Source: an uncultured Solirubrobacterales bacterium
Lineage (GTDB): Bacteria > Actinomycetota > Thermoleophilia > Solirubrobacterales > 70-9
Length of the DNA: 64,000 nt
NCBI GenBank assembly: GCA_963695805.1
Contig: CAVOHV010000001.1
Coordinates: forward strand, 67,843 to 131,842
Direction of reading: 5' to 3'
In this document: one piece after another, positions 24,399 through 40,072 of the stretch
How the letters are laid out: each line of letters begins with the position of its first letter
Position numbering within the stretch: the first letter of the stretch is position 1
Position numbers and translations under genes: made by a program
The notes under the pieces: model-generated
Databases searched by the model: none
What the model was told of the DNA's origin: nothing
The model's input: only the letters and a program-made list of their open reading frames with translations

Positions 24399-24802
24399 AT
24401 GTCCGCCGAGAACGTGAAGGTCGTGACGGCCATGTACGAAAGCCGTGAGCGAGGCGACATGGACGTGGGGGAGTTCGTTCATCCCGAGATCGTCTTCGCT
24501 CGCATCGGCTCTCCGAGCTTCCTGGCTCGGCCGGCGAATGGCATGGCCTTGACGGAATGCGGAAGGCCACCGTCGAGTATCTGAACGTCTGGGAGGATTA
24601 CCGCCTCGAGGTTGAGCGGATGATCGATCTGGGCGATCGCGTTCTCGTCCTCGAGACGCAGACCGCTCGGGGCAAGCGCAGCGGAGCCGTCACCAGCCAG
24701 GACGTCGGCACGCTGCTCACCCTCCGTGGCGGCCTGATCGTGCGCTGGGAGTACTACTGGGAGCGGGCCGAGGCCCTGGAGGCCGCCGGGATCGCCGAGT
24801 AG
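24399..24802 (+). pseudogene. SnoaL/NTF2-like small protein, frameshifted copy of the MSEENV...ALEAAGLxE family
   Basis: The N-terminal 40 residues (MSAENVKVVTAMYESRERGD...FARIGSPS) are in phase 0. The rest (GSAGEWHGLDGMRKATVEYLNVWEDYRLEVERMIDLGDRVLV...RAEALEAAGIAE) is in another phase. The shift maps to about 24516-24526. Confidence 0.65.
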
Positions 24803-25533: not shown

Positions 25534-25703
25534 TAATCGGGTGGCTCCTCCTGCATTTCACGGGTCGCGCTGTCGCGCGCCCTCGCATCATCGGGGCCCC
25601 CTCGCATTACGCCCGTGCTGCGGGGACGAATTGCGATTGGATCATCCCCTCGCGGGCGCTGTCAAATGAGAGACTGCGCGCGGTGATCGAACGGCCGGTG
25701 TTC

Positions 25704-27544: not shown

Positions 27545-27564
27545 GTTCTCGAGGGCTTGCCGGC

Positions 27565-27587
27565 TTTTGGTCGCTATGCGACCAAAA
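27565..27587. repeat. AT-flanked palindrome TTTTGGTCGC-TAT-GCGACCAAAA, related to the element at 54310-54355
   Basis: 10-bp perfect arms. It shares the core and flanks GCCGG(C)TTTTGGTC(G/A)C...G(C/T)GACCAAAA with the second copy. Confidence 0.6.
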
Positions 27588-27714
27588 TCGACCACAGCCG
27601 CAGGTAGGTCAGGAAGTCTGGCCGGGTCCGGAGTCCGCGGGCGTCCCAGTGCAGCAGAAGGGCGGTGCACGCAAGCGCCACCCTCTGTCGCATTCGTTGG
27701 CGGGAGCCGGTCCC

Positions 27715-28227
27715 CTAGTCGTGGGCGGGTGGATCGTCGGAGCCGCCGCCGCCACTGCCCCCGCCACTGCCGCCGGCGTCTCCGCTCGACCCGCTCGAGC
27801 CGTTGGAGCCGCTCGAACCGCTGCCGCCGCTGGAACCGCTCGAGCCGCTGCCTCCGGAACCGCTGCCTCCGGAGCTGCTGCCTCCCGAGCCGGACTCCTT
27901 GCGCTGGCCGCCGTGGTCGTCACCGCCGCCGCCCCCAGATCCGGAGGTTGAGGACCGGCCGGAGTCATCCGAACCCGAGCCTGAGGTGCCGGTGTCATCG
28001 CCCGAGACGTCGTCGCTCTGGCCCGAGGCTCCACCGTGGTCGTCGTTGCGGTCCTCCACCACCGGCGCCGGCCTCGGCTTCGGGGCGGACGCGACGAGTG
28101 AGACCGGCTGGGCGGAGAGTCCGATGTCTCGGCCCGAGATCGCGTTTGCAGCGAGCGCGATCGCCCCTGCCGCCACGATCCCGGCGATCCCGAGGAGGAC
28201 GGTGAGGATTCGCTCCTTGGTGGTCAT
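27715..28227 (-). CDS. signal-anchored Asp/His/Gly/Ser low-complexity protein (DDHGG motifs), co-transcribed with the two-component system
   Basis: ATG 28227 lies 4 nt after the HK stop. TM is ILTVLLGIAGIVAAGAIALAA. The tail contains NDDHGGASGQSDDVSGDD, GDDHGGQRKESG and long (SGS)n tracts. Confidence 0.6.
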   Translation of the reverse strand: MTTKERILTVLLGIAGIVAAGAIALAANAISGRDIGLSAQPVSLVASAPKPRPAPVVEDRNDDHGGASGQSDDVSGDDTGTSGSGSDDSGRSSTSGSGGGGGDDHGGQRKESGSGGSSSGGSGSGGSGSSGSSGGSGSSGSNGSSGSSGDAGGSGGGSGGGGSDDPPAHD

Positions 28228-28231
28228 GCGA

Positions 28232-29620
28232 TCACCGTAGAGGTCGCGAGTTAGGAGATGGCAAAGGCTCGCTGGGCAGGGTGACCTCGGCCCGGACGGC
28301 CCCCTCCTCCGCGTTCTCGATCCGGGCGGTGCCGCCCCTGCGACGTGCGAGGGCAGCCACGATCGGCAATCCAAGGCCCGTGCCCTCGCGGCGGCCGCTC
28401 CCACGGTAGAAACGCTCGAAGGCGCGGCGGCTGAGCTCGGGATCGATCGGTCCCGACTGGCTGAGCACGCCGATCCTGCCCGCCCCGTCCACGTGATCGG
28501 TCTCGACCCTCACGGTGGAGCCCCGGGGCGAGTACTTGAGTGCGTTCTCGATCAGGTTGTCGAGGATGGCCGCGAGCTCTGTGTCGCCGGCCCGGACGAC
28601 ACCCCCGCCCTGTCCGTCGAGCATGATCCCGTGCCCCGATTCGTCGGCGGGCCCGCGCCAGCGCTCGATGGCGTCGCGTGCCGCGGCGTCGAGATCCGCG
28701 CTCGCCTCCTCGGCGGACTGCTCACTCGAGGCCAGCTCGAGCAGATCCGAGACGAGTCCCTCGAGACGGGCGCTCTCGCGCTCGGCAGCCTCGAGTTCCT
28801 TGCGGACCTCGGGATCGTCGGTCTTCACACCCGCGGCCTCGAGGCGGAGTCGCAGGCCTGTCAGAGGGGTGCGCAGCTGGTGCGAGGCATCCGCGACGAA
28901 CACCCGCTGGGACTCCAGCACGGCATCGAGCCTGTCCGCCATCTCATTGAACTCATGGGCCACCTCGACCTGTTCGCTCGAGCCGCGCTCGGGTGCACGC
29001 GCCTCCGAGTCCCCGGCGGCGCGGCGGCGTGCGGCCTCACCGAGCGAGCGCAATGGCCTCGCAATGGACCCGGCGAGGATCCAGGCGACGCCGAGTCCCA
29101 GCACCAGGGCGAGCACCCCGATGCCGATCAGGGCGAGCACGTCCTGGCGGACCTGGCTGTGGACCGCGTGCAGGCTCTGCTCGACCTCGAGGGCACCGAT
29201 CGTCCGGCCGTTGCGGACGATGGGCACCGCGGTGGAGAGCACATCGCGGCCCTCGTGGTGGCGGCCCTGAGCGATGTTCCCGTCGAGCGCCTGCAGCGCA
29301 ACGGGGTCGTCGGTCAGCCGCGGTGGGCTCGCCACCGCACTGGGATCCGAGCTCGCGATCTCCTTGCCCCGCCCGTCGATGATGAAGACGAGTCCGTCGA
29401 GCCTCGCCGACGCCTCGGTCGCGACCCGCTGAAGCCGAGCGGGTGTCCGGAGCTGGTCGGCGACGGAAGCGGCGACGACCTGGGCCTGGGCGGCGGAATC
29501 CGCCTCGACCTCCGCGTTCACGCGGTCGCTGACGTTGGCCGACAGGGGGACCTCGAGGGCGACGATCACCACCAGCAGCGTGTAGGCGAAAGCCGCCAGG
29601 AGGCGGGCGCGCAGGCTCAT
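28232..29620 (-). CDS. sensor histidine kinase (HAMP, HisKA, HATPase_c)
   Basis: 462 aa. H-box FVADASHQLRTPLT, N-box LIENALKYSP, and G2 GTGLGLPIV. Confidence 0.9.
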   Translation of the reverse strand: MSLRARLLAAFAYTLLVVIVALEVPLSANVSDRVNAEVEADSAAQAQVVAASVADQLRTPARLQRVATEASARLDGLVFIIDGRGKEIASSDPSAVASPPRLTDDPVALQALDGNIAQGRHHEGRDVLSTAVPIVRNGRTIGALEVEQSLHAVHSQVRQDVLALIGIGVLALVLGLGVAWILAGSIARPLRSLGEAARRRAAGDSEARAPERGSSEQVEVAHEFNEMADRLDAVLESQRVFVADASHQLRTPLTGLRLRLEAAGVKTDDPEVRKELEAAERESARLEGLVSDLLELASSEQSAEEASADLDAAARDAIERWRGPADESGHGIMLDGQGGGVVRAGDTELAAILDNLIENALKYSPRGSTVRVETDHVDGAGRIGVLSQSGPIDPELSRRAFERFYRGSGRREGTGLGLPIVAALARRRGGTARIENAEEGAVRAEVTLPSEPLPSPNSRPLR

Positions 29621-29627
29621 CGGTGTC

Positions 29628-30341
29628 TCAGGCCTCGTCGGCCCCGGAGAACCTGAAGCCGACTCCGCGGACCGTGTGGATGTAGCGCGGGTTCGACGGA
29701 TCGTCGTCGAGCTTCTTGCGAAGCCCGCTGACGTGGACGTCGAGTGTCTTGGTGGAGCCGAACCAGTTCATGTCCCAGACCTCGTCGATCAGGGCCTCGC
29801 GCGTCAGCACCGAGCCCGCGCTCTCCATCAGTACCCGGAGCAGCTCGAACTCCTTGCGCGAGAGCTCGATCGGATTCCCTCCGAGGCGCGCCTCGTGCTT
29901 GTCCCTATCGAGGGTGAGGTCGCCGATCCTCATCGGGCCGGTGCCGTCGGCGCTCGGCACGGGCGCTGCGCGCCTCAGAACCGCCCTGACGCGCGCCATC
30001 ACCTCGCGGGCCGAGAACGGCTTGACGATGTAGTCGTCCGCCCCGAGCTCGAGGCCCGCGACCCGGTCGGCCTCGGACCCTCGCGCGGTGAGCATGATGA
30101 TCGGGACCCGGCTGTCCTGGCGCAGCTCCCGGCAGACGTCTAGGCCGGAGCCGTCGGGCAGGCCGATGTCGAGCAGGACGAGGTCCGGCGACTGCGCGCC
30201 GGCCTTCTCCATGGCCTCGGCGGCCGTACCGGCCACGGAGGCGTTGAAGCCCTCGCGCTCGAGGGCCTCCGCGAGGGGCTCGGTGATCGCCCGCTCGTCC
30301 TCGACGAGCAGGATGGTCTGGCGCTGGGGCGACGGGTTCAC
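29628..30341 (-). CDS. OmpR-family response regulator
   Basis: ILLVEDE, DLVLLDIGLPDGSG, and a winged-helix C-terminus (LSRKEFELLRVLM...VRGVGFRF). Confidence 0.9.
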   Translation of the reverse strand: MNPSPQRQTILLVEDERAITEPLAEALEREGFNASVAGTAAEAMEKAGAQSPDLVLLDIGLPDGSGLDVCRELRQDSRVPIIMLTARGSEADRVAGLELGADDYIVKPFSAREVMARVRAVLRRAAPVPSADGTGPMRIGDLTLDRDKHEARLGGNPIELSRKEFELLRVLMESAGSVLTREALIDEVWDMNWFGSTKTLDVHVSGLRKKLDDDPSNPRYIHTVRGVGFRFSGADEA

Positions 30342-30461
30342 AGCGACCTGATGCTAGGGGTGGCAAAGAAAACGGCTTGGGGCCGCCGGCCGGAGATTCG
30401 GCCAGCGGCCCCGCACCTGTCCTCGACGTCTCTCAGTCGTGGTGCTCGGATCCGTTCGGTC

Positions 30462-30986
30462 CTAGTCGTCGTCCGAGCCGCCCGAGTGGCTCGACGCGGA
30501 GCTGCCCGACCCCGAGCTGCCGGAGCCAGAGCTCCCGGAGCCGGAGTTGCCGGAGTCGCCACCGTGATCGTCGGCGAGATCGTGGCCTGGGCCGTCATCG
30601 GCGCCCTGGCCACCGTGGTCGTCCCCGACGTCGTGGCTCGGGCCATCATCGCTGTGCGAGCTGCCGGGACCCGAGTTCTGCGAGCCGGGACCGCGGTTGC
30701 CGTGCTCGCCGGGGTTGTCGTCGCCGACATCGTGGCCGGGACCGTCGTCGGTCGTGGTGGTCCGCCCGTTGTCCTCGGGCCGCTGCGGTCCCGCACAGCG
30801 CGGATCGTTGGCGTGCTCTGCCTCGTCGCACGGTCCGCTGACGTCCACGGTGTCGGTGGTGCTGGTCGTGGCGGCCGCCGGGGTGGCGGTGGAACTCTTG
30901 TCGGCCGGCGCCGCCATCACGTAGGCGGCCCCTCCGACGAGGATGCCGACCAGTACGGCCAGCAGCGTCTTCGACATGGTTCCCAT
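30462..30986 (-). CDS. signal-anchored Asp/His/Gly/Ser low-complexity protein (three DDGPxHDxxDD repeats), paralogue-like of 27715-28227
   Basis: ATG 30986 with AAGGAGG 7 nt upstream. TM is LLAVLVGILVGGAAYVMA. Contains CDEAEHANDPRC, repeats DDGPGHDVGDD / DDGPSHDVGDDHGG / DDGPGHDLADDHGG, and an (SGS)n tail. Confidence 0.6.
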   Translation of the reverse strand: MGTMSKTLLAVLVGILVGGAAYVMAAPADKSSTATPAAATTSTTDTVDVSGPCDEAEHANDPRCAGPQRPEDNGRTTTTDDGPGHDVGDDNPGEHGNRGPGSQNSGPGSSHSDDGPSHDVGDDHGGQGADDGPGHDLADDHGGDSGNSGSGSSGSGSSGSGSSASSHSGGSDDD

Positions 30987-31131
30987 CAACAATCCTCCTT
31001 GCACTTGGGTGTGGCGGCCACTATCCGCGGCCCGCGTCAGACGATGCCCAGGGGCAGGAAACCGGTTGGCAAGGGGAGGGTTAAGCCTTCGTAAGGTAGG
31101 CAGGACACCCCTCCACGCCCAGGAGTTGCCC

Positions 31132-31866
31132 ATGAGCCCTGACCAGGATCAAAGCCGCGTCGCCGTGATCACCGGAGCGTCGTCCGGCATCGGCGAGGCC
31201 ACGGCACGCGCCCTCGCCGCCGACGGCCACCGCCTCGCGCTGCTGGCCCGCCGTGCCGACCGCATCGAGGAGCTCGCCGCCGAGCTCGGCAACGGCGCGG
31301 TATCGATCGTCGCCGACGTCACCGACCGGGACTCGCTCGTCTCTGCCGCGGAGCGCGTTCAGGCAGACCTCGGAGGCGCCGACATCCTCGTCAACAACGC
31401 GGGCGTGATGCTGCTCGGCCCGTTCGACTCCGAGCACAGCGACGAGCTCCGCCAGATGGTCGAGGTCAACCTGCTCGGGGCGATGACGGCGACCGAGGTC
31501 TTCCTCGACCAGCTTCGTGACGGCGGGGGGGACCTGGTCAACATCTCGTCGGTGGCCGGTCGGACGGCACGCGCCTTCGGTTCCGGCTACAACGCGACGA
31601 AGTGGGGTCTGAACGGCTGGTCGGAGGCCCTGCGCCAGGAGCTGCTGCCCGACATTCGGGTGATGGTGATCGAGCCCGGGGCCGTCGGTACGGAGCTCAC
31701 CGATCACATCACCGACTCGAGCGTCAAGGAGGCCACCGAGAAGTTCTACGGCGAGGTCGCGATCACGGCCGCGGACATCGCCGAGATCATCGCCTTCTCG
31801 GTCTCACGCCCGCGGCGGGTCAACCTGAACGAGATCCTGGTCAGGCCCACGGCGCAGGCGCGCTGA
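31132..31866 (+). CDS. short-chain dehydrogenase/reductase (SDR)
   Basis: ATG 31132 preceded by AGGAG. VAVITGASSGIGEA (TGxxxGxG), NNAG, and the catalytic Y-x3-K in YNATKWG. Confidence 0.85.
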   Translation: MSPDQDQSRVAVITGASSGIGEATARALAADGHRLALLARRADRIEELAAELGNGAVSIVADVTDRDSLVSAAERVQADLGGADILVNNAGVMLLGPFDSEHSDELRQMVEVNLLGAMTATEVFLDQLRDGGGDLVNISSVAGRTARAFGSGYNATKWGLNGWSEALRQELLPDIRVMVIEPGAVGTELTDHITDSSVKEATEKFYGEVAITAADIAEIIAFSVSRPRRVNLNEILVRPTAQAR

Positions 31867-31885
31867 CGAGATTCCCCACCCGGTG

Positions 31886-31912
31886 ATAAGTTGACTCTTA
31901 GTCAATAAGTTG
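31886..31912. promoter_or_regulatory. AT-rich operator-like element upstream of the copper-protein operon
   Basis: Direct repeat ATAAGTTG (31886-31893 and 31905-31912) interlocked with the inverted repeat TTGACT-CTT-AGTCAA (31891-31905). It lies 20 nt upstream of the 31932 start in otherwise GC-rich DNA. Confidence 0.35.
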
Positions 31913-31931
31913 CCTCGGAGAGGATGCATGC

Positions 31932-33887
31932 ATGGAAGCGGCGACTCGTTTCGGGATCCGCAACTGGCTAGCTGCGTTCGGCTGCGCGGTAATTGCGCTG
32001 CTTGTGATCTCACCTGCAGCCAAGGCGGGGGTAAACGGCCAGTGCCCGTCGATCGCCGATAAGCCCGCCGCCGCGTCCCACGTCCCCTACCAGGACGTCC
32101 AGCACATCACCTACTGCTACGGGCCGATCAACATGACGCCGGGGCAGAACATCATCAAGTTCCGACCCGCGATCGACAGCATCGGGAACAAGCTCTGGCC
32201 CCAGGAGGACGGCTACATCACCCGCTTCGACCCGGAGCTGGTCTACACCGATGGAACGGTCCCGCGGGTCGACTTCCTGCATTTGCACCACGCGGTCTGG
32301 GCCGTCAACGGGGCCCCGCAGTTCGCGGTCGGGGAGGAGAAGACGGTCCAACAGCTTCCCCAGGGATTCGGCTGGCGCAGCCATCCCGGCGACAGCTGGA
32401 TCCTCAACGACATGCTGCACGACCTCGTCGCCCAGCCCGCCCAGGTCTACGTCGTCTGGCGCATCGACTTCGTCCCTGACAGCTCACCCGACGCGGCCTC
32501 GATTCACACCGTGCACACCAAGTGGATGGACGTGGCCGGCAACCCGAGCATCTATCCCGTCTTCGACTCGCTGCGCGCCTACGGCAAGAACGGCCGCTAC
32601 ACGTTCCCTGATCAGGCGCCGGCCTCGGACCTTCATCCATGCGGATCGAGCGGTCGGGCGCCGGACACCCACGGTTGTCTCGGAGCCGCCCAGAGCTGGA
32701 CCCCGACTCAGGGCTCGACCCTGATCGCCACCGCCGGGCACCTGCATCCTGGCGGGCTCTACACCCAGTTATGGGACACCCGCAACGGCACCACCAACAC
32801 GCTCTTCACCTCCGACGCCCATTACTACGAGCCCGCGGGTGAGGTCTCATGGGACGTCGCGATGGGCGCCACGCCGCCCGCCTGGAGGGTGCAGGTGAAG
32901 GCAGGCGACACGGTGAGCGTGCACGCCACCTACGACACGACGAGATCGGACTGGTACGAGGTGATGGGCATCATGCCCGTCGCGGTCTACAACGGGACCG
33001 ACGTCGGGGGGAAGGACGCGCAGGCGAATGACATCCCGCAGGACGAGGTCCGGACCCACGGGCACCTGGCCGAGAACGACAACCACGGCGGCGAGCCCAC
33101 GGGCGCCGCGAACCCGCTGTCGCTGCCGAGCGCGGCGGTGCCGAACAGCACGATCGGCATCCAGTTGTTCACGTACCAGGCGGATCAGAGCGCTGGCCTG
33201 AGCGTGCCGACGGTCGAGCCGGGGCAGTCGATCACCTTTCACAACCTCGACGCGGTGCCGAGCGTCAATGCCTTCCACACGATCACGGCCTGTAAGGACC
33301 CCTGCACCGCAAGGACCGGAATCGCCTTCCCGATCGCCAACGGGCCGGTGACCTTCGACTCGGGCGAGCTGGGCTTCAACGGGAACCAGGGTTCATTCGG
33401 GAATGCCCCGGCGGCCAATCGCGACACCTGGCAGACCCCCAAGGACCTTCCAACCGGCACCTACACCTTCTTCTGCCGGATCCATCCGTTCATGAGAGGA
33501 GCCTTCCGCGTGGAGCCGCAGTCCGGCCCACGGCAAACGCTGAGGGCGAGGAAGAAGCAGAAGCTCGCAGCGGCGGCGGTCAGCGAGACGGTCGAAAAGG
33601 CGGCCACGGTGCGGCTTCGGGCGAGGGTGAAGGGGGCGACGAAGTCGGCGGGCGCCTCCGGCGCGTCGCACGTCCTCTCCCAGGCACTCGACGCCAAGCG
33701 GTCCACGATTTCGCTCAATCCCAGGGTCAGGACGAAGATCAAGCTGAGGTTCTCGAAGGCAGCGCGCAAGCGACTCGGGGCGGCGCTCGCGCAGGGCGGA
33801 CCGCAGAAGATCGTCGTCACGGCCACGGCCACCGACGGGTTCGGCAAGACGTCGACCGCCAAGGCGAGCTTCAGGCTGATCGGCTAG
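31932..33887 (+). CDS. secreted multidomain copper protein: N-terminal domain with a PHM/DBH-like His/Met pattern, amicyanin-like cupredoxin domain, basic beta-rich C-terminal domain
   Basis: Signal peptide WLAAFGCAVIALLVISPAAKA. HLHH (about residue 117-120), LHD (about 163), GHLHPGG (about 270-272), EVMGIM (about 345). Cupredoxin ligands are H (NAFHTITAC) and C-x2-H-x2-M (FFCRIHPFMRG). Confidence 0.6.
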   Translation: MEAATRFGIRNWLAAFGCAVIALLVISPAAKAGVNGQCPSIADKPAAASHVPYQDVQHITYCYGPINMTPGQNIIKFRPAIDSIGNKLWPQEDGYITRFDPELVYTDGTVPRVDFLHLHHAVWAVNGAPQFAVGEEKTVQQLPQGFGWRSHPGDSWILNDMLHDLVAQPAQVYVVWRIDFVPDSSPDAASIHTVHTKWMDVAGNPSIYPVFDSLRAYGKNGRYTFPDQAPASDLHPCGSSGRAPDTHGCLGAAQSWTPTQGSTLIATAGHLHPGGLYTQLWDTRNGTTNTLFTSDAHYYEPAGEVSWDVAMGATPPAWRVQVKAGDTVSVHATYDTTRSDWYEVMGIMPVAVYNGTDVGGKDAQANDIPQDEVRTHGHLAENDNHGGEPTGAANPLSLPSAAVPNSTIGIQLFTYQADQSAGLSVPTVEPGQSITFHNLDAVPSVNAFHTITACKDPCTARTGIAFPIANGPVTFDSGELGFNGNQGSFGNAPAANRDTWQTPKDLPTGTYTFFCRIHPFMRGAFRVEPQSGPRQTLRARKKQKLAAAAVSETVEKAATVRLRARVKGATKSAGASGASHVLSQALDAKRSTISLNPRVRTKIKLRFSKAARKRLGAALAQGGPQKIVVTATATDGFGKTSTAKASFRLIG

Positions 33888-34576
33888 TGCGGGGGAGGCC
33901 TTTCACCGTGCGGCGGGTGATCGTTGCCTTGGCCGTAATCGGCGTGGCCGCCTTAGGCGCCGGCCAGGCGCTCGGAGCCTCCGAGGCAATCACCACGTCG
34001 ACCACGTGCTGCACCTACGGCAAGGCCACCTTCACGATCGACCGGGGAACAGTGGCCACGTTCCAGAATCAGGACCCGAGCATCTCGCCACATGACGTCT
34101 TTTCGGTCGACAGCGGGGCCAAGAACAAGCCGTTGTTCAGCTCCGCCGAGATCAACATCGGCCAGACGCCGGTGAACGGAACGGACGCCCTCGGCGCGGG
34201 CACGTACCGCTTCTTCTGCACGGTTCACCCCACTCAGATGTCAGGCGAGCTCGTGGTGACGCCGAGCGGCTCTCCCACCGTTGCAGTCACGATCCTCAGC
34301 CGCAAGCTGGGTCCGGTTGCCTCGAGTGGCAAGCTGCAGGTCAAGCTGCGAGGTCTGCTCCCGAGCAACAACGTGTCGCTGACGGCACGCAAGGGGAGCA
34401 GGAAGCTCGGCTCGATGCACGGCATCGACTTGGCGGCGGGCGCCTCGCGCATCGTCAAGCTGCCGGTCAGCCGCGCCGGCCGGAGCTCCCTCAAGAACCT
34501 CGGTAGTGCCAAGGTCAAGGTGATGGCGGCTCCGCCTGGAGACCAACAGGTCAGCGTGGCGCGGCGCCTGGACTAG
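33887..34576 (+). CDS. secreted cupredoxin (type-1 copper) protein with the same kind of C-terminal beta-rich domain
   Basis: GTG overlaps the upstream stop (TAGTG). Signal peptide VIVALAVIGVAALGAGQALGA. Ligands are H (SISPHDV) and C-x2-H-x3-M (FFCTVHPTQMSG). Confidence 0.7.
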   Translation: MRGRPFTVRRVIVALAVIGVAALGAGQALGASEAITTSTTCCTYGKATFTIDRGTVATFQNQDPSISPHDVFSVDSGAKNKPLFSSAEINIGQTPVNGTDALGAGTYRFFCTVHPTQMSGELVVTPSGSPTVAVTILSRKLGPVASSGKLQVKLRGLLPSNNVSLTARKGSRKLGSMHGIDLAAGASRIVKLPVSRAGRSSLKNLGSAKVKVMAAPPGDQQVSVARRLD

Positions 34577-34617
34577 CCCAGCAGGCGGAGGCCCCGCCGC
34601 GGGATACTGCGTAAGCG

Positions 34618-35025
34618 ATGTCGGAGGAGAACGTCGAGATCGTGCGGGGCGTCTATGACGCCTGGCAACGGGGCGACTTTGAAGCCGCGTTAGAGCCCTT
34701 CCACGAGGACGTCGAGTGGTTTGGCCCGCCGGATATCTCCCGCGCGGGCGGCGGCGGAGTTGCGCGCGGGCACGAGGGCGTTAGCCGTTCGATCGGTCGC
34801 TGGATGGGCGCATGGGGTGAACTCCGCTTCGAGCTTCGCGACCTGATCGATTTCGGCGACGAGGTGCTGGCTGAAGGTTGGCAACAGGGACGCGGCCGGG
34901 GGAGCGGAGTCGAGGTCTCAGAGGAAATCTTCAGCGTCTGGACTCTCCGAGCGGGCAAGATCGTCCGGCAGCGGATGTTTCGCGACAGAGCACAGGCCCT
35001 CGAAGCCGTCGGCCTTTCGAAGTAG
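34618..35025 (+). CDS. SnoaL/NTF2-like small protein (MSEENV...ALEAVGLSK family member)
   Basis: 135 aa. MSEENVEIVRGVYDAWQRGDFEAALEPFHEDVEW is typical of SnoaL_2-type proteins. Shares N- and C-terminal blocks with five other ORFs in the window. Confidence 0.8.
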   Translation: MSEENVEIVRGVYDAWQRGDFEAALEPFHEDVEWFGPPDISRAGGGGVARGHEGVSRSIGRWMGAWGELRFELRDLIDFGDEVLAEGWQQGRGRGSGVEVSEEIFSVWTLRAGKIVRQRMFRDRAQALEAVGLSK

Positions 35026-35162
35026 GCCGACATACGAGGAAGCCCGGCGCTGGGCGTCCCTTCCGCCACTGTGCGACTCGGCACACCGGACTCGCAACGT
35101 GCTGACTCCCACAGGGGGAGGACTCCCGGCGGGGAAGATGGGCCCACGCGAGGAGAAGGGAG

Positions 35163-35578
35163 TTGAAGATGACGGATCTCTCGAGTGAGTCAATGATGGT
35201 GGCGGCGGTGCGTTCCCGGCGTTGGCGCCTGAAGCTCGCGTTGGCGGCGGCGCTGGCGACGATGGTGCTGGTGGCGCCGACGGCCCCGCTCGTCCGGCAG
35301 GCGCCGGGGCGGGCGCGGGGCTCGCGGAACTGGTCCAGGGACCAGGCGGCGTCTCGACGACTTCGGCGACCCCTCCGGCCACGGGTGACGTCGTGCTGCG
35401 CCGTGACGGGTCGAAGGCCGATCCCTTCGTCGCAGACCTAGCCCCGACCGGGGCCCCCGCAGCCGACGGCTTCGACTGGGGAGACGCGGCGGTCGGCGTC
35501 GGCGCCGGCATGATCGTGAGTCTGCTCGGGATCGCCGCGATCGGTGCCTATGGAGGGCGCCCCGCGCGAACCGCCTAG
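35163..35578 (+). pseudogene. possible frameshifted small secreted/C-terminally anchored protein
   Basis: A signal-peptide-like start (MMVAAVRSRRWRLKLALAAALATMVLVAPTAP) is in one phase (ORF 35163..35441). A plausible mature part with a C-terminal TM (GDVVLRRDGSKADPFVADL...GVGAGMIVSLLGIAAIGAYGG) is in another (ORF 35222..35578). The switch would fall in a G-rich run near 35290-35320. Confidence 0.3.
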
Positions 35579-35607
35579 CTTGCGGCAAAGCCCAGCCTCA
35601 AGAAACT

Positions 35608-35635
35608 CCAAGGGCCCTCTGTCGAGGGCCCTTGG
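35608..35635. terminator. bidirectional terminator-like hairpin between convergent genes
   Basis: 12-bp perfect stem CCAAGGGCCCTC / GAGGGCCCTTGG with loop TGTC. Confidence 0.6.
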
Positions 35636-35700
35636 AATTCCCGAGAGCTCGTCTGCGGGGTCACCGTTCGCGCCGTCAGCTTTCGGCGCGACGGGCGAAC

Positions 35701-36525
35701 TCAGACGTGTTGCGCGAGCCAGTCGTGGACTTCGCCGATGCGCCCCGCCACCACCGCTAGGTGTCCTTCGTGATCGCACAGCTCGGCTTCTGCCCCCGGA
35801 ATGGTGTCCGCGAGCCAGCGGGCGTGTACGAACGGCACAAAGCGATCCTCCAGACCGTGCCATACCTTCACGGGGATCGAAATCGAAGCCGGATCGAAGC
35901 CCCACGCCGAGTGGGACACGGCGATGTCGTCGTCGGTCCAGCCGTCGATGCTGGACGCCAGTGCGACCTGGGCCGCTCGGTGCAGCCAGACGCCGAATTC
36001 GCCGTGGAGCACCGCGCCATCGGATGCGGACTTCCCTGCCGACCACTGCTCGGCTAGCTCGCGGGCGTTCATTGCCAGAAGCTCCTCCCGCTGCTGCTCG
36101 CCCTGCCGCTCCCATTTGGCGCAATCGGACAGGAAGAGCTCATAGTCCTCCCGATCTTCGTCAGAGCTACCCGCTAAGAAGTCCAGCCCGGGCGCATCGA
36201 ACGGAGCGGGCGAGCCAATTGTCGCCACAGCCGCCACCAGATCGTCAAGCAACGCGCCGCAAGCGAGCGCGTGGGGACCACCACCTGAGAAGCCCCAGAC
36301 GACGCATCGCTCGAAACCCAGGACCTCACTGAGCCTGCGCACGTCAGCTGCGCAATCAGCCACCGTCCGCCCTAGCTGTCTCGACGAGCCGCGATAGCCC
36401 GGCCGGTCGTAGGTGATCAACGTCAAGCCTCGGCCGGCTGCGTCCTGAACCCAGTCGTGGTACAGCAGGCCCGCGTTGGGCGAGCCGACTTGGACGAGCA
36501 CCACGCGACGGCCGTCGCCGGCCAC
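35701..36525 (-). CDS. alpha/beta-fold hydrolase
   Basis: 274 aa with nucleophile elbow VVWGFSGGGPHA (G-x-S-x-G) and a C-terminal His (CDHEGHLA). Confidence 0.8.
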   Translation of the reverse strand: MAGDGRRVVLVQVGSPNAGLLYHDWVQDAAGRGLTLITYDRPGYRGSSRQLGRTVADCAADVRRLSEVLGFERCVVWGFSGGGPHALACGALLDDLVAAVATIGSPAPFDAPGLDFLAGSSDEDREDYELFLSDCAKWERQGEQQREELLAMNARELAEQWSAGKSASDGAVLHGEFGVWLHRAAQVALASSIDGWTDDDIAVSHSAWGFDPASISIPVKVWHGLEDRFVPFVHARWLADTIPGAEAELCDHEGHLAVVAGRIGEVHDWLAQHV

Positions 36526-36725
36526 CTCCGCGTGCAGCCGGCGCCCATCCGCAGTGTCAACGTGCCTCGTGTGCGCTAACTCCGGATGGGTGCCATGTGC
36601 GCTCAGAGCAAGACACTCTCAGATCCGCTTGGGAGCCCGAAGCCGGCTTCCCACGTGTCGCTTCGCTACGAACGACGACCGGCAGCCGGGTGCGGCCTGT
36701 TCGGCCGCGAGATAGTGGGCGGGCG

Positions 36726-37118
36726 ATGTCCGAGGAGAACGTCGAGTTGGTACGTGAGAGCTACGTGACTCCCGGTGCATTATTCACGAGTTGGTCCGAG
36801 CGGATGGCACCGAAGGTCGAGTTCGATTTCACCGCGGCGTATCCCGACCGGCCCGTGATGCGAGGGATTGAGGAGCTGCGGAGATTCCGCGAGGAAGGGC
36901 CTTGGGCGGAGCTGAGGTTCGATCCCGAGCGCTTTGTCGACGTCGATGATGAGCGCGTACTCGTCTTGGTCAGGGTCCACGCCGAGGGGAAGGGGAGTGG
37001 CGTACCGGTCGAGCTTCGAAACGCTCACGAGTACACGATCCGCGACGGCATGTTGGTTCGGTTCAAGGTCTATGGCGACCGAGCCGAGGCCCTCGAAGCC
37101 GGCGGACTGTCGGAGTAG
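36726..37118 (+). CDS. SnoaL/NTF2-like small protein (family member)
   Basis: ORF 36597..37118 with ATG 36726. MSEENVELVRESY...RAEALEAGGLSE. Confidence 0.75.
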   Translation: MSEENVELVRESYVTPGALFTSWSERMAPKVEFDFTAAYPDRPVMRGIEELRRFREEGPWAELRFDPERFVDVDDERVLVLVRVHAEGKGSGVPVELRNAHEYTIRDGMLVRFKVYGDRAEALEAGGLSE

Positions 37119-37215
37119 GCGGCTCGGCAAAGTCCGTTTCCTCGCACAGAGCCACCCGGTGGTCTGACCTTCTGAATCGCCATCTCGACCGTCCCACAAT
37201 CCGACCCTGCTCCCG

Positions 37216-37479
37216 GTGCCTAAGATCGGCGCCGTGCTCGTGCTGATCGGCCTCATTCTGCTCGGAGTTGCCGCCACTGCCCTCGCGTCCGTGGTGGTGC
37301 TGCGCCAACGCGAGGCGGGCGAAGCGCGGAAGGTGCAAGACCTCTACCCGGAAGGGAGCGAGAGGGCGGTCTACGAGACGCTCTACGGAAAGCGCTCGAC
37401 GACGGTATCCGCCCCGGTGCCCGTACAGCGATCACCAGAAGCCGATCTGGATAGTCCCCAGGGTGGATTGCGGGAGTAG
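37216..37479 (+). CDS. small hypothetical membrane protein ending in a SnoaL-family 3' junction relic
   Basis: 87 aa with TM IGAVLVLIGLILLGVAATALASVVVL. The last codons (...GGLRE-stop) and the following GCG-ATG are the same junction sequence seen between the SnoaL copies. Confidence 0.35.
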   Translation: MPKIGAVLVLIGLILLGVAATALASVVVLRQREAGEARKVQDLYPEGSERAVYETLYGKRSTTVSAPVPVQRSPEADLDSPQGGLRE

Positions 37480-37482
37480 GCG

Positions 37483-37887
37483 ATGCCGGAGGAGAACGTC
37501 GAGGCGGCGAAACTCGCTGTTGCGGCTTTCAACCGGGGAGACTTTGAGGGCTTGGAGGAGCTCTACGCCGCAGATGCCGTGCTCCAAGACCTGCAGAACG
37601 CTCCTGATCAGCCGGTGACGGTTGAGGGCGTTCAGGCGATTCGACAGACCCTGAATCTGTGGGCGGCCGCCTTCGACGAGCTGCGCGTTGATATCGAGGA
37701 ATACATCGATGGCCCGGACGCCGTGATCTGCGCGGCGCATTGGCAGGGGCAGGGCAAGACGAGCGGCATCTCGATCGATGTCCACCAGTTCGACCTCTAC
37801 GAGTTCCGCGACGGAAGGGTCATCCGAGCGGTCCTCGGCTTCAGATCCAAGAACGATGCGCTCGAAGCCGCCGGGCTTCAGGAGTAA
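37483..37887 (+). CDS. SnoaL/NTF2-like small protein (array copy 1)
   Basis: MPEENVEAAKLAVAAFNRGDFEGLEELYAADAV...NDALEAAGLQE. The next copy starts 3 nt after the stop. Confidence 0.8.
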   Translation: MPEENVEAAKLAVAAFNRGDFEGLEELYAADAVLQDLQNAPDQPVTVEGVQAIRQTLNLWAAAFDELRVDIEEYIDGPDAVICAAHWQGQGKTSGISIDVHQFDLYEFRDGRVIRAVLGFRSKNDALEAAGLQE

Positions 37888-37890
37888 GCG

Positions 37891-38298
37891 ATGTCGGAGG
37901 AGAACGTGGCGCTGGCACAAAAGGCCATCGACGCTGTCAACCGCGGCGACTTCGACGCCTTGCTGGCCTTCCTCAGCCCTGATGTCGTGTGGGAGGCCCT
38001 TGAAGGTGTCACTGGGATTGGTGAGCTCTACCGCGGGCGGGCAGGGGTGCGAGAGTGGATCGAGCTGATGTGGGAAAACGCGGAGGAGGGCGTCCACATC
38101 GAGATCGGGCAGATAGCGGACTTGGGTGATGACCGGGTCTTCATCGCCGTGGTTATCACGGCACGCCGGAGGGGCAGCGGCATGCCGCTCGAATACCGCA
38201 CCTGGCAGATCGTCTGGTTCGCGGACGGCCTGATTTCGAGACGTCAAGCCTTCTGGACCCGTGCCGAAGCCCTCAAAACCGCCGGACTGCGGGAGTAG
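37891..38298 (+). CDS. SnoaL/NTF2-like small protein (array copy 2)
   Basis: MSEENVALAQKAIDAVNRGDFDALLAFLSPDVVW...RAEALKTAGLRE. 3-nt spacers on both sides. Confidence 0.8.
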   Translation: MSEENVALAQKAIDAVNRGDFDALLAFLSPDVVWEALEGVTGIGELYRGRAGVREWIELMWENAEEGVHIEIGQIADLGDDRVFIAVVITARRRGSGMPLEYRTWQIVWFADGLISRRQAFWTRAEALKTAGLRE

Positions 38299-38301
38299 GC
38301 G

Positions 38302-38700
38302 ATGTCGGAGGAGAACGTCGAGGTCGTTCTGGATCAGTGGGATGCGTGGAGCGACGGAAACCTGGACAGGTGGGCACAGGCCTGGGACCCCGAGGTGGTC
38401 GTAGTTGCCCCGAAGGGTTGGCCCGAGGGAGACGTCGAGCGGGGCCTCGAAGCCTGGAGGCGTCAGGCCCAACGTTTGCGGCATACCTGGGCGGAGGCGC
38501 GGATCGAGGTTGACGAGATTCGGGATGTAGAAGATCGGGTGCTTGCTCGGATTCGCTACGTGACGGTTGGAGGGGACACCGGCATCCCCTTTGAGACGCC
38601 CATGGGCGTTGTCTTCCTCCTCAGCGAGCGAAAGATCAGGCGGGCGTATTTCGGCTGGACGATGGCCGACGCCCTCGAAGCCGCCGGGCTGCCGGAGTAG
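38302..38700 (+). CDS. SnoaL/NTF2-like small protein (array copy 3)
   Basis: MSEENVEVVLDQWDAWSDGNLDRWAQAWDPEVVV...MADALEAAGLPE. Followed by a strong hairpin. Confidence 0.8.
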   Translation: MSEENVEVVLDQWDAWSDGNLDRWAQAWDPEVVVVAPKGWPEGDVERGLEAWRRQAQRLRHTWAEARIEVDEIRDVEDRVLARIRYVTVGGDTGIPFETPMGVVFLLSERKIRRAYFGWTMADALEAAGLPE

Positions 38701-38723
38701 CGAGCCTCTGGACTCAGCCATAG

Positions 38724-38753
38724 AGAAACGGCCCTCCGAAGAGGGCCGTTTCT
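38724..38753 (+). terminator. intrinsic-terminator-like hairpin closing the SnoaL array
   Basis: 13-bp stem AGAAACGGCCCTC / GAGGGCCGTTTCT with loop CGAA. The T-rich 3' arm is followed by GGGG. Confidence 0.65.
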
Positions 38754-38816
38754 GGGGTACTACAGGGAGGAGAGATATGTTTTGCTGCTGTGTTGTCTGT
38801 GGGAGGTAGCCGGTAC

Positions 38817-39179
38817 TCAGGCTCCGAGTGGACGACTGAACCGCGTTGAGGCGGTCAGCGTCATGTGAGCGGAGCCGAACCCGGCCAAAAAGACTGTTGC
38901 GACGTAGTCGCCCCCGATTCCGGCCAGCACCGCCGCCGCGATGGTCGCGCCGGCCAGCGTGTAGTCGAGCCCGGCGTGGGCACTCAGCGGCACATTTCCA
39001 CGAGTGCTGTCGCCGTAGACGGAGGTCGCGAGACCGATCAGCAGGACGCCGAGCGCGATGCTGAGACCGCCCGCCAGGTAGTCGAAGCCGAGCGCGAACG
39101 GCGCCACGATCAGCAGCGGCGCGGCCAGCACCTCGAGGGCAGCATGGACGTTGATCGGTATCGCTCTGAAGAGACTCAT
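38817..39179 (-). CDS. hypothetical four-TM membrane protein
   Basis: ORF 38817..39230 with ATG 39179 (MSLFRAIPINVHAALEVLAAPLLIVAPFALGF...). Family not recognised. Confidence 0.5.
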   Translation of the reverse strand: MSLFRAIPINVHAALEVLAAPLLIVAPFALGFDYLAGGLSIALGVLLIGLATSVYGDSTRGNVPLSAHAGLDYTLAGATIAAAVLAGIGGDYVATVFLAGFGSAHMTLTASTRFSRPLGA

Positions 39180-39289
39180 CGCGAAACCAGGGTACGAACG
39201 TATGTGCGATTCGTGTGTGAGGGCGATCACAGTCCAAGCTGCGATCGGATTGCCGCTCCGGGCGCAGCGGCGCTTGTACGGTTCGCCGC

Positions 39290-40072
39290 GTGACCCGTCG
39301 TCGCGCCGATACGCTGCTCGCCGACCGCGGCCTCGCGCCGTCGCGCACCGCAGCCGCCGCCACCGTCCGCGCCGGGCGGGTGCGCCTTGGGAAGGACGGG
39401 TCCACGATCGAAAAGCCGAGCGAGCTGGTCCCGGAGGACGCCGAGCTCTTGGTCGAAGAGGGGGAGGAGTTCGTCTCGCGAGGCGGGATCAAGCTCAACA
39501 ACGCCCTCGACGAGCTTTCCGTCGCGGTCGAGGATCGCCTGGCGCTGGACGTCGGCGCCTCGACCGGGGGGTTCACGGATTGCCTGCTGCAGCGCGGCGC
39601 GCGGATGGTGATCGCGGTCGACGTCGGCTACGGGCAGCTCGACTGGAGCCTGCGGCAGGACTCTCGCGTTCTGGTCATGGAGCGGCTCAATGCCAGGTAC
39701 CTGGGCGATTCGTTCCTGCCCTTTCGGCCCGAGCTGATCACGGTGGACGTCGCCTTCATCTCTCTGGCGATGGTGATGCCTTCGATCGTCACCACCGCGG
39801 CCGATGAGTTCGACCTACTGGGCCTCGTCAAGCCGCAATTCGAGCTCGGCAAGGAGAAGGTCGGGAAGGGGGGCGTCGTTCGCGATGCCGGCGACCGCCG
39901 CGACGCGATTCGCCGGGTGGCCGAGGCCGCGCAGCAGGAGGGGCTGATCGTCCGCGGGCTGGCCTCGTCCGGACTGCCGGGCCCGAAGGGGAATCGCGAG
40001 ACCTTCGTCTGGGCCGCGCGCAGCGGGGAGGCGATCGACCTCGACGCCGCACTTAGGGAGGTCGAGCCGTGA
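39290..40072 (+). CDS. tlyA: TlyA-family rRNA (cytidine-2'-O)-methyltransferase
   Basis: S4-like N-terminus RRADTLLADRGLAPSRTAAAATVRAGRV, SAM motif LDVGASTGGFTDCLL, and the KPQFE motif. Confidence 0.85.
   Translation: MTRRRADTLLADRGLAPSRTAAAATVRAGRVRLGKDGSTIEKPSELVPEDAELLVEEGEEFVSRGGIKLNNALDELSVAVEDRLALDVGASTGGFTDCLLQRGARMVIAVDVGYGQLDWSLRQDSRVLVMERLNARYLGDSFLPFRPELITVDVAFISLAMVMPSIVTTAADEFDLLGLVKPQFELGKEKVGKGGVVRDAGDRRDAIRRVAEAAQQEGLIVRGLASSGLPGPKGNRETFVWAARSGEAIDLDAALREVEP

Follow-up and report, generated by a model that had tools for sequence, protein, structure and literature searches.

Gene content of the SnoaL_2 locus

The locus raises the question of why neighbouring small genes with divergent cores share nearly the same ends, and how such an arrangement may have evolved. 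The window, i.e. the whole stretch of 64,000 nucleotides that was analyzed, contains the five intact ORFs and the frameshifted sixth copy that had been described before. All five ORFs belong to one SnoaL_2/NTF2 family, and each scored above the Pfam SnoaL_2 gathering score (E 2e-8 to 1e-17). Two of them are solo cassettes on the plus strand, c1 (34618..35025, 135 aa, E 1.1e-17, C-terminus ...ALEAVGLSK), whose protein has an identical counterpart on public contigs reaching 192 kb in length, and c2 (36726..37118, 130 aa, E 2.1e-8, family profile E 5e-54), whose ATG start sits within a longer GTG ORF. The others form a head-to-tail array on the same strand comprising c3 (37483..37887, 134 aa, E 2.2e-17), c4 (37891..38298, 135 aa, E 3.4e-17) and c5 (38302..38700, 132 aa, E 5.1e-11). 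As predicted, these three genes are spaced by stop, GCG and ATG, and all lie in one reading frame. The frameshifted copy (24399..24802, plus strand) is located directly downstream of dxs and preceded by GGGATACTCCATCGTG. Its matches to profile positions 1-36 and 46-132 fall in different frames, the second match having an E of 1.5e-21.

The array is headed by an 87-aa ORF encoding a single-pass membrane protein (37216..37479, plus strand), for which no Pfam family was matched. It indeed ends in the GGAGTAGGCGATG junction of the family (...CGGGAGTAGGCG-ATG) but is not a relic family unit as had been suggested. It is instead a small membrane gene that is conserved in a related genome (L005), where its homologues again precede cassettes. 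One homologue is complete (13832-14050, minus strand) and followed by stop, GCG, ATG and cassettes; the second is a partial match (~12494-12700, minus strand). Downstream of the array, the strong hairpin of the original prediction was recovered (38724..38753, 13-bp stem, 4-nt loop, -35.7 kcal/mol, z = -3.5). Placed between the convergent c5 and a membrane gene (38817-39230), it is likely a terminator that lacks a long U tract, and it was missed by a consensus terminator scan.

Conservation of the junction as DNA

A shared start motif had been noticed, and ATGYCGGAGGAGAACGT occurs five times compared to 0.03 expected occurrences. What is new here is that the gene ends are conserved at the DNA level, beyond the protein level. 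Where two copies share an amino acid, they share its codon with a frequency of 0.83 at the N-terminus and 0.82 at the C-terminus, compared to 0.46 in the core. The C-terminal codons are nearly fixed (GCC CTC GAA GCC GCC GGG CTG), the Glu among them being encoded by GAA in 29 of 31 cases, a triplet that makes up 10% of the background Glu codons, while the invariant Gly of the core uses all four codons. The stop codon is TAG in 35/37 copies (background 44%). The block joining two cassettes is a nearly invariant unit of 50 nt composed of the final nine codons, TAG, GCG, ATG and five further codons. In the window it is represented by the c3-c4 junction (37858..37907, plus strand; final nine codons, TAA, GCG and 17 nt of the c4 start) and by the c4-c5 junction (38269..38318, plus strand; GCCCTCAAAACCGCCGGACTGCGGGAGTAGGCGATGTCGGAGGAGAACGT). 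Across genomes, the junction 50-mer is 87% identical and its flanks 44-49%; the metagenome loci were picked by a junction 25-mer, which inflates junction identity there, but the same figure was obtained for the set collected by protein search.

It had been proposed that the C-terminal codons double as the ribosome binding site of the next gene. The last two sense codons do form a GGAG 6 nt before the following ATG, as seen upstream of c4, and translation of downstream cassettes would therefore proceed by coupling or by re-initiation along a polycistronic mRNA. The third position of the penultimate codon is G in 198 of 202 counted copies irrespective of the amino acid (TCG, CGG, GCG, GAG, CAG and ACG all preserve GGAG), which argues for selection at the nucleotide level. 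Coupling is unlikely to be the sole cause because GGAG and the terminal Glu are kept equally well in copies scored as lacking a full downstream cassette (106/117) and in those with one (80/91), the former class being impure since TAGGCGATG directly follows 53 of its copies.

A connector upstream of first and solo copies

In place of the junction, a 20-nt motif (cgcG.GATACTGcGcGGGCG) abuts the ATG of first or solo copies. Elsewhere, 63 of 79 non-junction regions upstream of such copies carry it immediately before the ATG, and no further conservation was found upstream of it. In the window it precedes c1 (34598..34617, plus strand, cgcGGGATACTGCGTAAGCG) and c2 (36706..36725, plus strand, cgcGAGATAGTGGGCGGGCG). 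Thus, CTGCGTAAGCGATG before 34618, previously taken for a relic junction, belongs to this second conserved connector (GGGATACTGCGTAAGCG). The CTGCGTAAGCG sequence was likewise rejected as a relic unit, being the promoter-like connector.

The connector harbors a -10-like GATACT, 9 nt before the ATG of c1, and no Shine-Dalgarno sequence, suggesting that the first cassette of an array may start on a leaderless or nearly leaderless transcript, although a somewhat shorter distance would be expected if the start were strictly leaderless. A consensus promoter scan found nothing. We infer promoter function, leaderless initiation and translational coupling from sequence alone.

Recombination and divergence

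The assumption that the ends are recombinogenic was borne out by comparison with L005, which is syntenic to the window at 84-88% nucleotide identity. Within the array, shared homology covers only c3-c4 (94% identity) and breaks exactly at the junctions, at 37474 and 38300. The dS values are 0.13 for c3 and c4 versus 0.29-0.75 for the flanking genes; c3 itself is 94% identical to its orthologue (dS 0.130, dN/dS 0.21). Orthologues of c4 are numerous (78-93% identity) and neighbored by four different downstream and two different upstream partners. Codon 3 appears to track the genome and not the orthologue group. It is GAG in 5/5 copies of the window and 7/7 copies of a second locus (L002), and CAG in 69% of all copies; homogeneity within contigs is modest (0.65 vs. 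0.54, p ~0.009).

On the other hand, the paralogues are not fast-diverging, as had been presumed, but ancient. Those of the window are 27-42% identical with saturated dS, and every one has orthologues in other species (80-93% identity). For orthologues, dN/dS is ~0.2-0.4 (median 0.34; 0.21-0.23 for c3/c4), and no pair exceeds 1.

Since neighbouring cassettes are in frame across the junction, a lost stop codon converts them into a two-domain protein. Such fusions exist and reveal a linker column of E-[W/Y/Q/E/L/R]-A-[M/V/L/I/A]-S-QENV, in which all residues at the stop position but R are one nucleotide from TAG. One of them (L003, 6311-7126) carries CGG where the stop codon would be. By their sequence, the fusion proteins arose by stop loss in the junction.

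Repertoire and protein fold

Arrays of this kind are genuine and enriched, those of relatives comprising 2 to ~15 copies each. At least 120 metagenome contigs from soil carry the junction. The 236 full copies fall into 193 core clusters, and stop plus 3-nt spacer are present in 86 of 91 adjacent pairs. With at least 193 gene types on one junction, the genes behave as swappable cassettes. Orthologues of c5 (80-90% identity) occur in four Solirubrobacterales MAGs, each in a different array. Many cassettes are dispersed across the genome with their own promoter-like connector. Cassettes are lower in GC and GC3 than flanking genes. In agreement with the original prediction, no toxin or secretion gene was detected near the copies here or in ~130 related loci (10 long and ~120 short); neighbours are heterogeneous without a recurrent gene family, and mobile-element genes are sporadic (one transposase-like ORF, one HNH-type gene).

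In the AF2 model of c4 (pLDDT 93.9), an NTF2 cone is accompanied by a helix at the C-terminus, and Foldseek related it to cyclase-like, KSI and LEH folds with TM values of 0.74-0.80, the best structural matches being enzymes and ligand binders. Conserved helices at the N-terminus (MS-E/Q-ENVE) and, in shorter form, at the C-terminus (EALEAAGLxE) enclose a highly variable core, and no polar pocket residue is invariant across cassettes. The cassettes might tentatively be regarded as a panel of small-molecule binding or catalytic pockets of differing specificities, not as one conserved enzyme. Family members are annotated by JGI as 'ketosteroid isomerase-like protein'. That the termini are family-wide, the objection foreseen in the original prediction, holds within this subfamily only, since the C-terminal ALEAAGLxE is missing from distant SnoaL_2 proteins as well as from PDB relatives.

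Evolution of the cassette arrays

We consider it fairly probable that these loci, throughout soil Solirubrobacterales, are self-contained arrays whose cassettes are coupled in translation and which evolve by junction recombination. Each unit encodes an NTF2-fold protein of ~132 aa that is cytoplasmic and belongs to a single SnoaL_2 subfamily. As comparison of genomes shows, the 50-nt block serves as crossover site for homologous recombination, by which whole cassettes are added, deleted or swapped within and between related genomes. Recombination also homogenizes the ends, while the cores diverge under purifying selection. As a whole, the earlier interpretation is partly supported.

A polyimmunity locus, in which orphan immunity proteins against different competitor toxins are kept as a recombining stockpile as in esaG/tipC, is an unlikely alternative despite the matching architecture of paralogues with recombining 5' and 3' nucleotide blocks (PMC9484751) and the polyimmunity loci, fused polyimmunity proteins and NTF2-fold immunity families on record (PMC3482391). 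The pan-repertoire (193 types/236 copies), shuffling, lateral exchange, fusions and lower GC/GC3 would fit as well. However, none of the arrays in the 10 long and ~120 short loci adjoins a toxin, T7SS/WXG, Rhs, CDI or other delivery gene, the Pfam models Imm-NTF2 and Imm-NTF2-2 did not match the window copies at E <= 0.1, and PADLOC returned no match. Moreover, the closest structures are enzymes and ligand binders, no orthologue pair has a dN/dS above 1, and many cassettes are scattered with a connector of their own.

Somewhat less credible is that the ends are a shared control element, through which one sRNA, RNA-binding protein or regulator acts on all members, with recombination as a by-product. 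Synonymous sites fixed across species and not just in single genomes, maintenance of the rare GAA, the translation-initiation region inside the block and the 20-nt connector kept before dozens of unrelated cassettes would agree with it. By contrast, neither a consistent RNA fold nor covariation is seen in the junction (alifold -9 kcal/mol), Rfam gave no match, the arrays have no linked candidate regulator, and the low c3-c4 dS and partner shuffling are left unexplained.

With similarly low probability, adjacent cassettes are subunits of hetero-oligomers whose amounts are equalized by coupling, with fusions as the single-chain version. NTF2 folds usually dimerize, head-to-tail coupling is the rule, and two-domain fusions, derived from the tandem junction, are frequent in the best family matches among 1.84 billion representative proteins. 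Yet the partners of c4 vary (four downstream, two upstream), arrays of one, three and five cassettes exist, and a natural two-domain protein modelled by AF2 has confident domains (pLDDT 90) but a pTM of only 0.60, so that inter-domain packing is not confident.

That these are ordinary old ketosteroid-isomerase-like paralogues, tandem by simple duplication and with ends set by protein constraint and GC-rich codon bias, is very improbable and appears largely refuted by the codon patterns: an N-terminal ENVxIV common to distant PDB relatives (e.g., 3fgy), ancient origin under purifying selection and the JGI annotation would suit it, but the terminal codons are far from background bias while equally conserved core residues mix codons, spacer and stop codon are fixed too, homology breaks at junctions with discordant dS, codon 3 goes with the genome and not the orthologue group, and the codon patterns are common to 193 distinct core clusters and thus no artefact of a few recent duplications.

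Comparison with known systems

Fold relatives of the cassettes are SnoaL/AclR cyclases, TerC, IdmH, limonene epoxide hydrolase and ketosteroid isomerase. The cassettes differ in having no biosynthetic gene cluster context or identified conserved catalytic residue set. With the structural-genomics proteins of SnoaL_2 (PF12680; PDB 3fgy, 3grd, 3ec9, 3ebt), which have no assigned function, they share the fold, an evident sequence relationship (profile E 1e-15 to 1e-18), a length of ~130 aa and the N-terminal ENVxIV. However, the PDB relatives align at profile positions 1-121 only, lacking the C-terminal EALEAAGLxE helix, and are not known in arrays. Paired NTF2-fold modules, in adjacent genes or one chain, are also found in the epoxide hydrolases Lsd19 and MonBI/MonBII, which act in polyether biosynthetic clusters with a defined set of catalytic residues, whereas the cassette fusions arise when a generic junction loses its stop, and their partners vary. 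Like integron arrays, the loci contain promoter-proximal, co-oriented variable cassettes reshuffled between genomes, but they possess neither integrase nor attC, have 3-nt spacers only, comprise a single protein family and exchange by homologous, not site-specific, recombination.

Polyimmunity loci and proteins (Zhang et al. 2012, PMC3482391) resemble the arrays in that distantly related tandem paralogues occur alongside multi-domain proteins built by fusing the same modules. The NTF2 fold serves as immunity scaffold in some systems (PMC3482391), and Imm-NTF2 was unreported from Actinobacteria in that survey; the cassettes differ from Imm-NTF2/Imm-NTF2-2 by the absence of HMM similarity and of a neighbouring toxin gene. 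The nearest analogues are the T7SS immunity gene arrays of esaG (S. aureus) and tipC (Streptococcus) (Garrett et al. 2022, PMC9484751). These belong to Firmicutes and to the DUF600 or TipC families, while the cassettes are SnoaL_2/NTF2 proteins of Actinomycetota, have no linked toxin or T7SS, and can use an alternative, promoter-type connector. What the systems have in common are strings of non-identical tandem paralogues, gene-end blocks (~55 nt) of high nucleotide identity at 5' and 3', homologous block recombination that expands, deletes and reshuffles copies, and a divergent middle in which specificity is thought to reside. In the cassettes, both blocks are fused over a fixed 3-nt in-frame spacer, Shine-Dalgarno included.

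The SnoaL_2 cassettes and their family

Five intact SnoaL_2 reading frames are located on the + strand of the window, which has a G+C content of 68.5%. The cassettes c1 (34618-35025) and c2 (36726-37118) stand alone; c3 (37483-37887), c4 (37891-38298) and c5 (38302-38700) form an array in which stop codon, GCG and ATG follow each other directly and all three genes share one reading frame. A profile built from the five copies detected a frameshifted sixth copy at approximately 24399-24802 and no further family member in the window. The motif ATGYCGGAGGAGAACGT occurs five times in the window, compared to 0.03 expected occurrences. Downstream of c5, a 13-bp hairpin (38724-38753; -35.7 kcal/mol, z -3.5) probably functions in transcription termination, to judge from its sequence; a scan of positions 34300-39400 for intrinsic terminators gave no match. 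The copies, 3-nt spacers, shared termini and hairpin of the original prediction proved to be described accurately when coordinates, Pfam matches, a profile search, motif counts and folding were considered, since the reading frames, their SnoaL_2 matches, the frameshifted copy, the spacers, the hairpin and the junction at the end of a membrane ORF were all found.

This membrane ORF of 87 aa (37216-37479) ends in ...GGAGTAGGCG-ATG and thus in the same junction as the cassettes. It had been regarded as the relic of a unit but is a genuine small membrane gene. In L005, a locus of a relative that is syntenic with the window, a complete 72-aa homologue with the same transmembrane segment and the common motif ...VYE.LYG.RS.TVSAPV... 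is followed by stop, GCG, ATG and cassettes, and a second, partial match to the 87-aa ORF was detected. An antisense "ORF" of 714 aa (37432-39576, - strand) spanning the entire array was rejected as a gene, GC3 favouring the + strand. Its repeating peptide ...DVLLRHRLLPQ.GGFEG... results from the conserved junction, in high-GC sequence, being read as its reverse complement.

All five cassettes exceed the gathering cut-off of SnoaL_2 (PF12680) with 35-65 bits versus 27 (E 2e-8 to 1e-17), in agreement with the family assignment originally proposed. The AF2 model of c4 (pLDDT 93.9, pTM 0.87) displays the NTF2 cone with an additional short C-terminal helix (residues 124-130), and the alpha+beta cone of three helices on a curved sheet is likewise supported by Foldseek (TM 0.74-0.80 to NTF2-fold structures). 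A profile of 14 copies matched best the uncharacterised NTF2-like PDB entries 3fgy, 3grd, 3ec9 and 3ebt (E 1e-15 to 1e-18), followed by TerC, IdmH, limonene epoxide hydrolases and ketosteroid isomerases. In all of these the alignment is confined to profile positions 1-121, which makes the C-terminal EALEAAGLxE specific to this subfamily. No polar pocket residue is invariant across the cassettes; what is invariant are structural glycines and the termini. The cassettes do not qualify as SnoaL-type polyketide cyclases (PF07366), for which a conserved catalytic Asp/His set and an aromatic polyketide cluster would be expected in addition to the HMM score, as only c1, c3 and c5 pass the cut-off of 28.4 bits while c4 scores 19 bits and c2 gave no match, and no PKS or tailoring genes were found near the cassettes. 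The NCBIfam search yielded matches below threshold only, among them the ketosteroid isomerase-related TIGR02096 for c4 (31.3 bits) and c3 (27.5 bits) versus a curated cut-off of 97.1, the other copies having no match to this model. An affiliation with Imm-NTF2-type families, suggested for examination by the original prediction, was not borne out; no copy matched the Pfam models Imm-NTF2 or Imm-NTF2-2 at E <= 0.1. The PADLOC models for anti-phage defence matched neither cassettes nor neighbours. By tblastn against plasmids, only six weak matches were obtained (Streptomyces and Paludisphaera), and these distant plasmid-borne homologues lack both termini. The metagenomic protein P0167 (1945 aa, 13 tandem NTF2-like repeats) is another distant relative without the MSEENV and ALEAAGL termini.

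Arrays and fusion proteins in relatives

The cassette arrays are real and more general than could be seen from the window sequence alone. Head-to-tail arrays with the same stop+3-nt spacing were present in every related locus examined and comprised two (L006, L009), three (L001), four (L007), five plus a fragment (L002) or about 15 copies and fragments in 15 kb (L003). This range of 2 to about 15 copies substantiates a genuine enrichment of arrays. The number of metagenome contigs, from soil or rhizosphere, that contain a 25-nt junction pattern is at least 120; the junction 25-mer gave no match in viral contigs. In a census of the window and 129 loci, which include the junction-pattern matches listed, 388 family domains and 236 full copies were counted, the latter falling into 193 core clusters at >= 65% identity, and 86 of the 91 adjacent pairs showed the stop+3-nt spacing. 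Searching 1.84 billion representative proteins with the profile gave 24,340 matches at E <= 1e-3 and 189 at E <= 1e-30. Each copy of the window has many orthologues in soil metagenomes; those of c4 are 78-93% identical and named 'ketosteroid isomerase-like protein' by JGI, those of c5 come from four MAGs of Solirubrobacterales or uncultured Actinomycetes. Protein-cluster look-ups for the wider subfamily returned metagenome sources only.

Truncated or frameshifted cassettes occur within the arrays of L003 (6029-8365) and L002 (12022-12120), covering profile positions 41-132, 31-132, 60-131 and 1-33. These fragments point to ongoing decay and imprecise recombination. L003 also contains a 105-aa ORF (13314-13631, + strand) which follows a junction (GGAGTAGGCAATG) and starts with MSEENEG... 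although the family profile gives no match to it; the 5' block of the family may here precede a body that is unrelated or badly degraded.

Many of the best profile matches are two-domain proteins of 250-290 aa. In 14 diverse proteins of this kind the linker reads ...GLEE-[W/Y/Q/E/L/R]-A-[M/V/L/I/A]-S-QENVE..., where all residues at the stop position except R are one nucleotide away from TAG; the GCG spacer and a drifting ATG come next. In a fused pair of L003, CGG is found where the stop codon stood. Because the junction is in frame and the linkers are derived from stop codons, neighbouring cassettes become fusion proteins. An AF2 model of one natural two-domain protein showed both domains with confidence, but its pTM was 0.60 and gave no support for a fixed packing between them. 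In some metagenome cassettes, the stop codon is replaced by an extension of eight codons (...GLSE-QDAHADS-TGA), with the connector, a 20-nt motif otherwise preceding first or solo cassettes, directly behind it.

The junction is conserved as DNA

The junction is a block of 50 nt consisting of the last 27 coding nucleotides, the stop codon, GCG and the first 17 nt of the next cassette. Between genomes its identity amounts to 87%, compared to 44-49% for the 50 nt on each side, and the value for the block is the same in loci obtained by protein search as in those obtained by the junction pattern. Where two copies agree in the amino acid of a column, they also agree in the codon in 83% (codons 2-7), 46% (core) and 82% (codons 124-132) of the cases. 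The C-terminal codons are nearly fixed (GCC CTC GAA GCC GCC GGG CTG nnG GAG TAG). GAA was found in 29 of 31 cases versus 10% of the Glu codons in neighbouring genes, and TAG terminates 35 of 37 copies versus a background of 44%; for an invariant glycine of the core, all four codons are in use. At the penultimate codon the amino acid varies (S, R, A, E, Q, T, G) but the third base is G in 198 of 202 copies counted, whereby GGAG is preserved 6 nt before the next ATG. It is likely from this arrangement that the terminal GGAG mediates translation coupling. Array-final copies revealed no relaxation of the terminal Glu/GGAG, in a class that is imperfect because many 'terminal' copies lie at contig ends. 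RNA structure was rejected as the main cause of the conservation, since the MFE folds of 16 junctions disagree. The weak alifold consensus (-9 kcal/mol) contains no compensatory changes, and Rfam gave no match over 34000-39500 at E <= 1. The junction is thus conserved at the nucleotide level, and the arrays are modular.

Cassettes without a preceding cassette have a different upstream sequence. In 63 of 79 such distinct copies, the connector cgcG.GATACTGcGcGGGCG lies directly before the ATG, with no conservation seen farther upstream. It precedes c1 and c2 in the window and, in degraded form, the pseudogene. The GATACT of the connector resembles a -10 element, with A at position 2 and T at position 6; a Shine-Dalgarno sequence is lacking. 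Since actinobacterial promoters can rely on a -10 element alone, giving leaderless or short-leader mRNA, we infer from the motif that the connector may be such a promoter whose transcript is leaderless or has a leader of 3-4 nt. A scan of 34300-39400 for consensus sigma-70 promoters yielded no match. In four first-cassette upstream regions (L002 ~9935-9975; L003 ~12845-12885, ~14280-14320 and ~14805-14845), the near-palindromic GCTTTGCATGGAAAGC is situated upstream of the GATACT connector at a distance of about 15 nt. This sequence, which is absent before the copies of the window, could represent an operator or form a hairpin. In one metagenome locus, the 3' end of a tRNA (GGTTCGAATCC...) lies about 40 nt upstream of the connector.

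Exchange of cassettes and genomic context

The window and L005 are syntenic (dxs ... tlyA-nadK-MFS-recN) with 84-88% nucleotide identity. In the variable region, their sole homology is c3-c4, which are 94% identical from 37474 to 38300, both ends lying inside junctions. The dS values of c3 (0.130) and c4 (0.131) are low compared to 0.29-0.75 for flanking genes, which dates the exchange of this block to a time after the divergence of the genomes. Orthologues of c4 have four downstream and two upstream partners, all different, and those of c5 reside in four different, non-syntenic arrays. Codon 3 (GAG or CAG) tracks the genome rather than the orthologue group: it is GAG in 5/5 copies of the window and 7/7 of L002, compared to CAG in 69% overall (within-contig homogeneity p ~0.009), while codon 6 tracks the c4 orthologue group. 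The codon, dS and partner patterns match the expectation for crossovers or gene conversion within the junction. These sequence comparisons indicate that cassettes are reshuffled and exchanged at the junction, and the idea that the conserved ends are recombinogenic is upheld. By contrast, the paralogues had been called fast-diverging, which the substitution rates do not bear out. Paralogues of the window are 27-42% identical with a core dS > 1, and the core dN/dS of orthologue-group pairs has a median of 0.34 (IQR 0.26-0.41, maximum 0.81); for c3 and c4 versus L005 it is 0.21-0.23, compared to 0.09-0.17 for housekeeping neighbours. The cassettes are old, and purifying selection on them is somewhat relaxed.

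The arrays are part of a variable region bounded by dxs (22279-24300) and tlyA (39290-40072), with GC (0.64) and GC3 (0.74-0.79) below those of flanking genes (0.68-0.71 and 0.87-0.92, respectively). The variable island of L005 contains cassettes differing from those of the window. A comparison of window 24294-34600 with L005 3855-8507 revealed that L005 lacks the window segment at ~25.8-31.0 kb, where an MFS pump is encoded (25757-27544) together with a histidine kinase/response regulator pair (28232-30341).

Neighbours in the window encode an alpha/beta hydrolase, an SPW-like membrane protein, cupredoxin-like secreted proteins, an SDR, a two-component system and MFS pumps; among the neighbours in other loci are Usp, hydrolases, methyltransferases, GNAT, cupin, DUF892 and glyoxalase. 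When 168 ORFs lying up to 1.5 kb from arrays were clustered, no family occurred in more than three loci. Unrelated hydrolases recur near arrays, and the alpha/beta hydrolase adjacent to c2 has no homologue in L001-L009 by tblastn. At 31932-34576 (+ strand), two adjacent genes with apparently secreted products overlap by 1 nt (ATGA-type coupling at 33887); the first encodes a 651-aa protein without Pfam match that has an orthologue in L005, the second a 229-aa cupredoxin-like protein. Convergent to c5, the gene at 38817-39230 (- strand) encodes a multi-pass membrane protein of 137 aa that weakly matches the SPW repeat. It is syntenic in L005 (15440-15835, 78% identity), tblastn gave no match outside L005, and the Pfam-less 136-aa proteins beside the arrays of L006 and L008 have no detectable relation to it. 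Mobile-type genes are sporadic, being limited to a transposase-like ORF in L097 and an HNH-type gene in L008. As already noted for the window, no toxin or secretion gene lies nearby, and the same holds for L001-L009 and about 120 metagenome loci, where no such domains were detected among the neighbours.

Possible role and comparison with known systems

It is conceivable, albeit rather improbable, that soil Solirubrobacterales keep an undescribed, self-contained cassette system of hundreds of interchangeable NTF2-fold specificities, in which the 50-nt junction would both couple translation and act as the homologous-recombination site shuffling cassettes within and between genomes. The stockpile might then supply binders that neutralise, or factors that confer immunity to, diverse toxins or antibiotics, and polyimmunity loci would have an actinobacterial counterpart uncoupled from any resident toxin. 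Outside Firmicutes and known toxin-immunity pairs, the family would clearly exemplify ends conserved as DNA for expression and recombination around diversifying cores. It also offers a tractable model for the building and exchange of large one-fold repertoires in bacteria, for the origin of multi-domain proteins from in-frame junctions via stop loss and for the combination of leaderless and coupled translation in one operon type. Soil metagenomes contain the family in abundance, with thousands of members whose sole annotation is 'ketosteroid isomerase-like'; if it could be assigned a role in neutralising toxins or antibiotics or in binding xenobiotics, a sizeable part of actinobacterial dark matter would be annotated. 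Should the arrays reflect a mere expansion of an enzyme family, the junction would still be a useful marker of concerted evolution.

Full-text literature searches did not find a prior description of arrays in this SnoaL_2 subfamily. Integrons possess IntI, attI and attC sites, whereas the arrays described here have 3-nt spacers and no integrase was found in any examined locus, which separates them from this group. Nor do they qualify as Imm-NTF2 or Imm-NTF2-2 systems, there being no adjacent toxin gene with a secretion-associated N-terminal domain. 'Polyimmunity loci and proteins' belong to polymorphic toxin systems (PMC3482391), and their architecture of tandem divergent paralogues together with multi-domain fusions of the same module is also seen here. 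In the esaG/tipC immunity arrays of the T7SS, conserved end blocks of about 55 nt are the places of recombination (PMC9484751). The cassettes likewise have end blocks of high nucleotide identity common to all paralogues (87% versus 44-49% in the flanks), at which homology breaks, dS, partners and codon 3 indicate recombination. However, esaG/tipC arrays have a cognate secreted toxin, and none linked to the cassettes was seen. Among described architectures, the esaG/tipC arrays are the closest, with polyimmunity loci also close. As homology and toxin linkage fail, the resemblance is one in the mode of array evolution rather than in identity.
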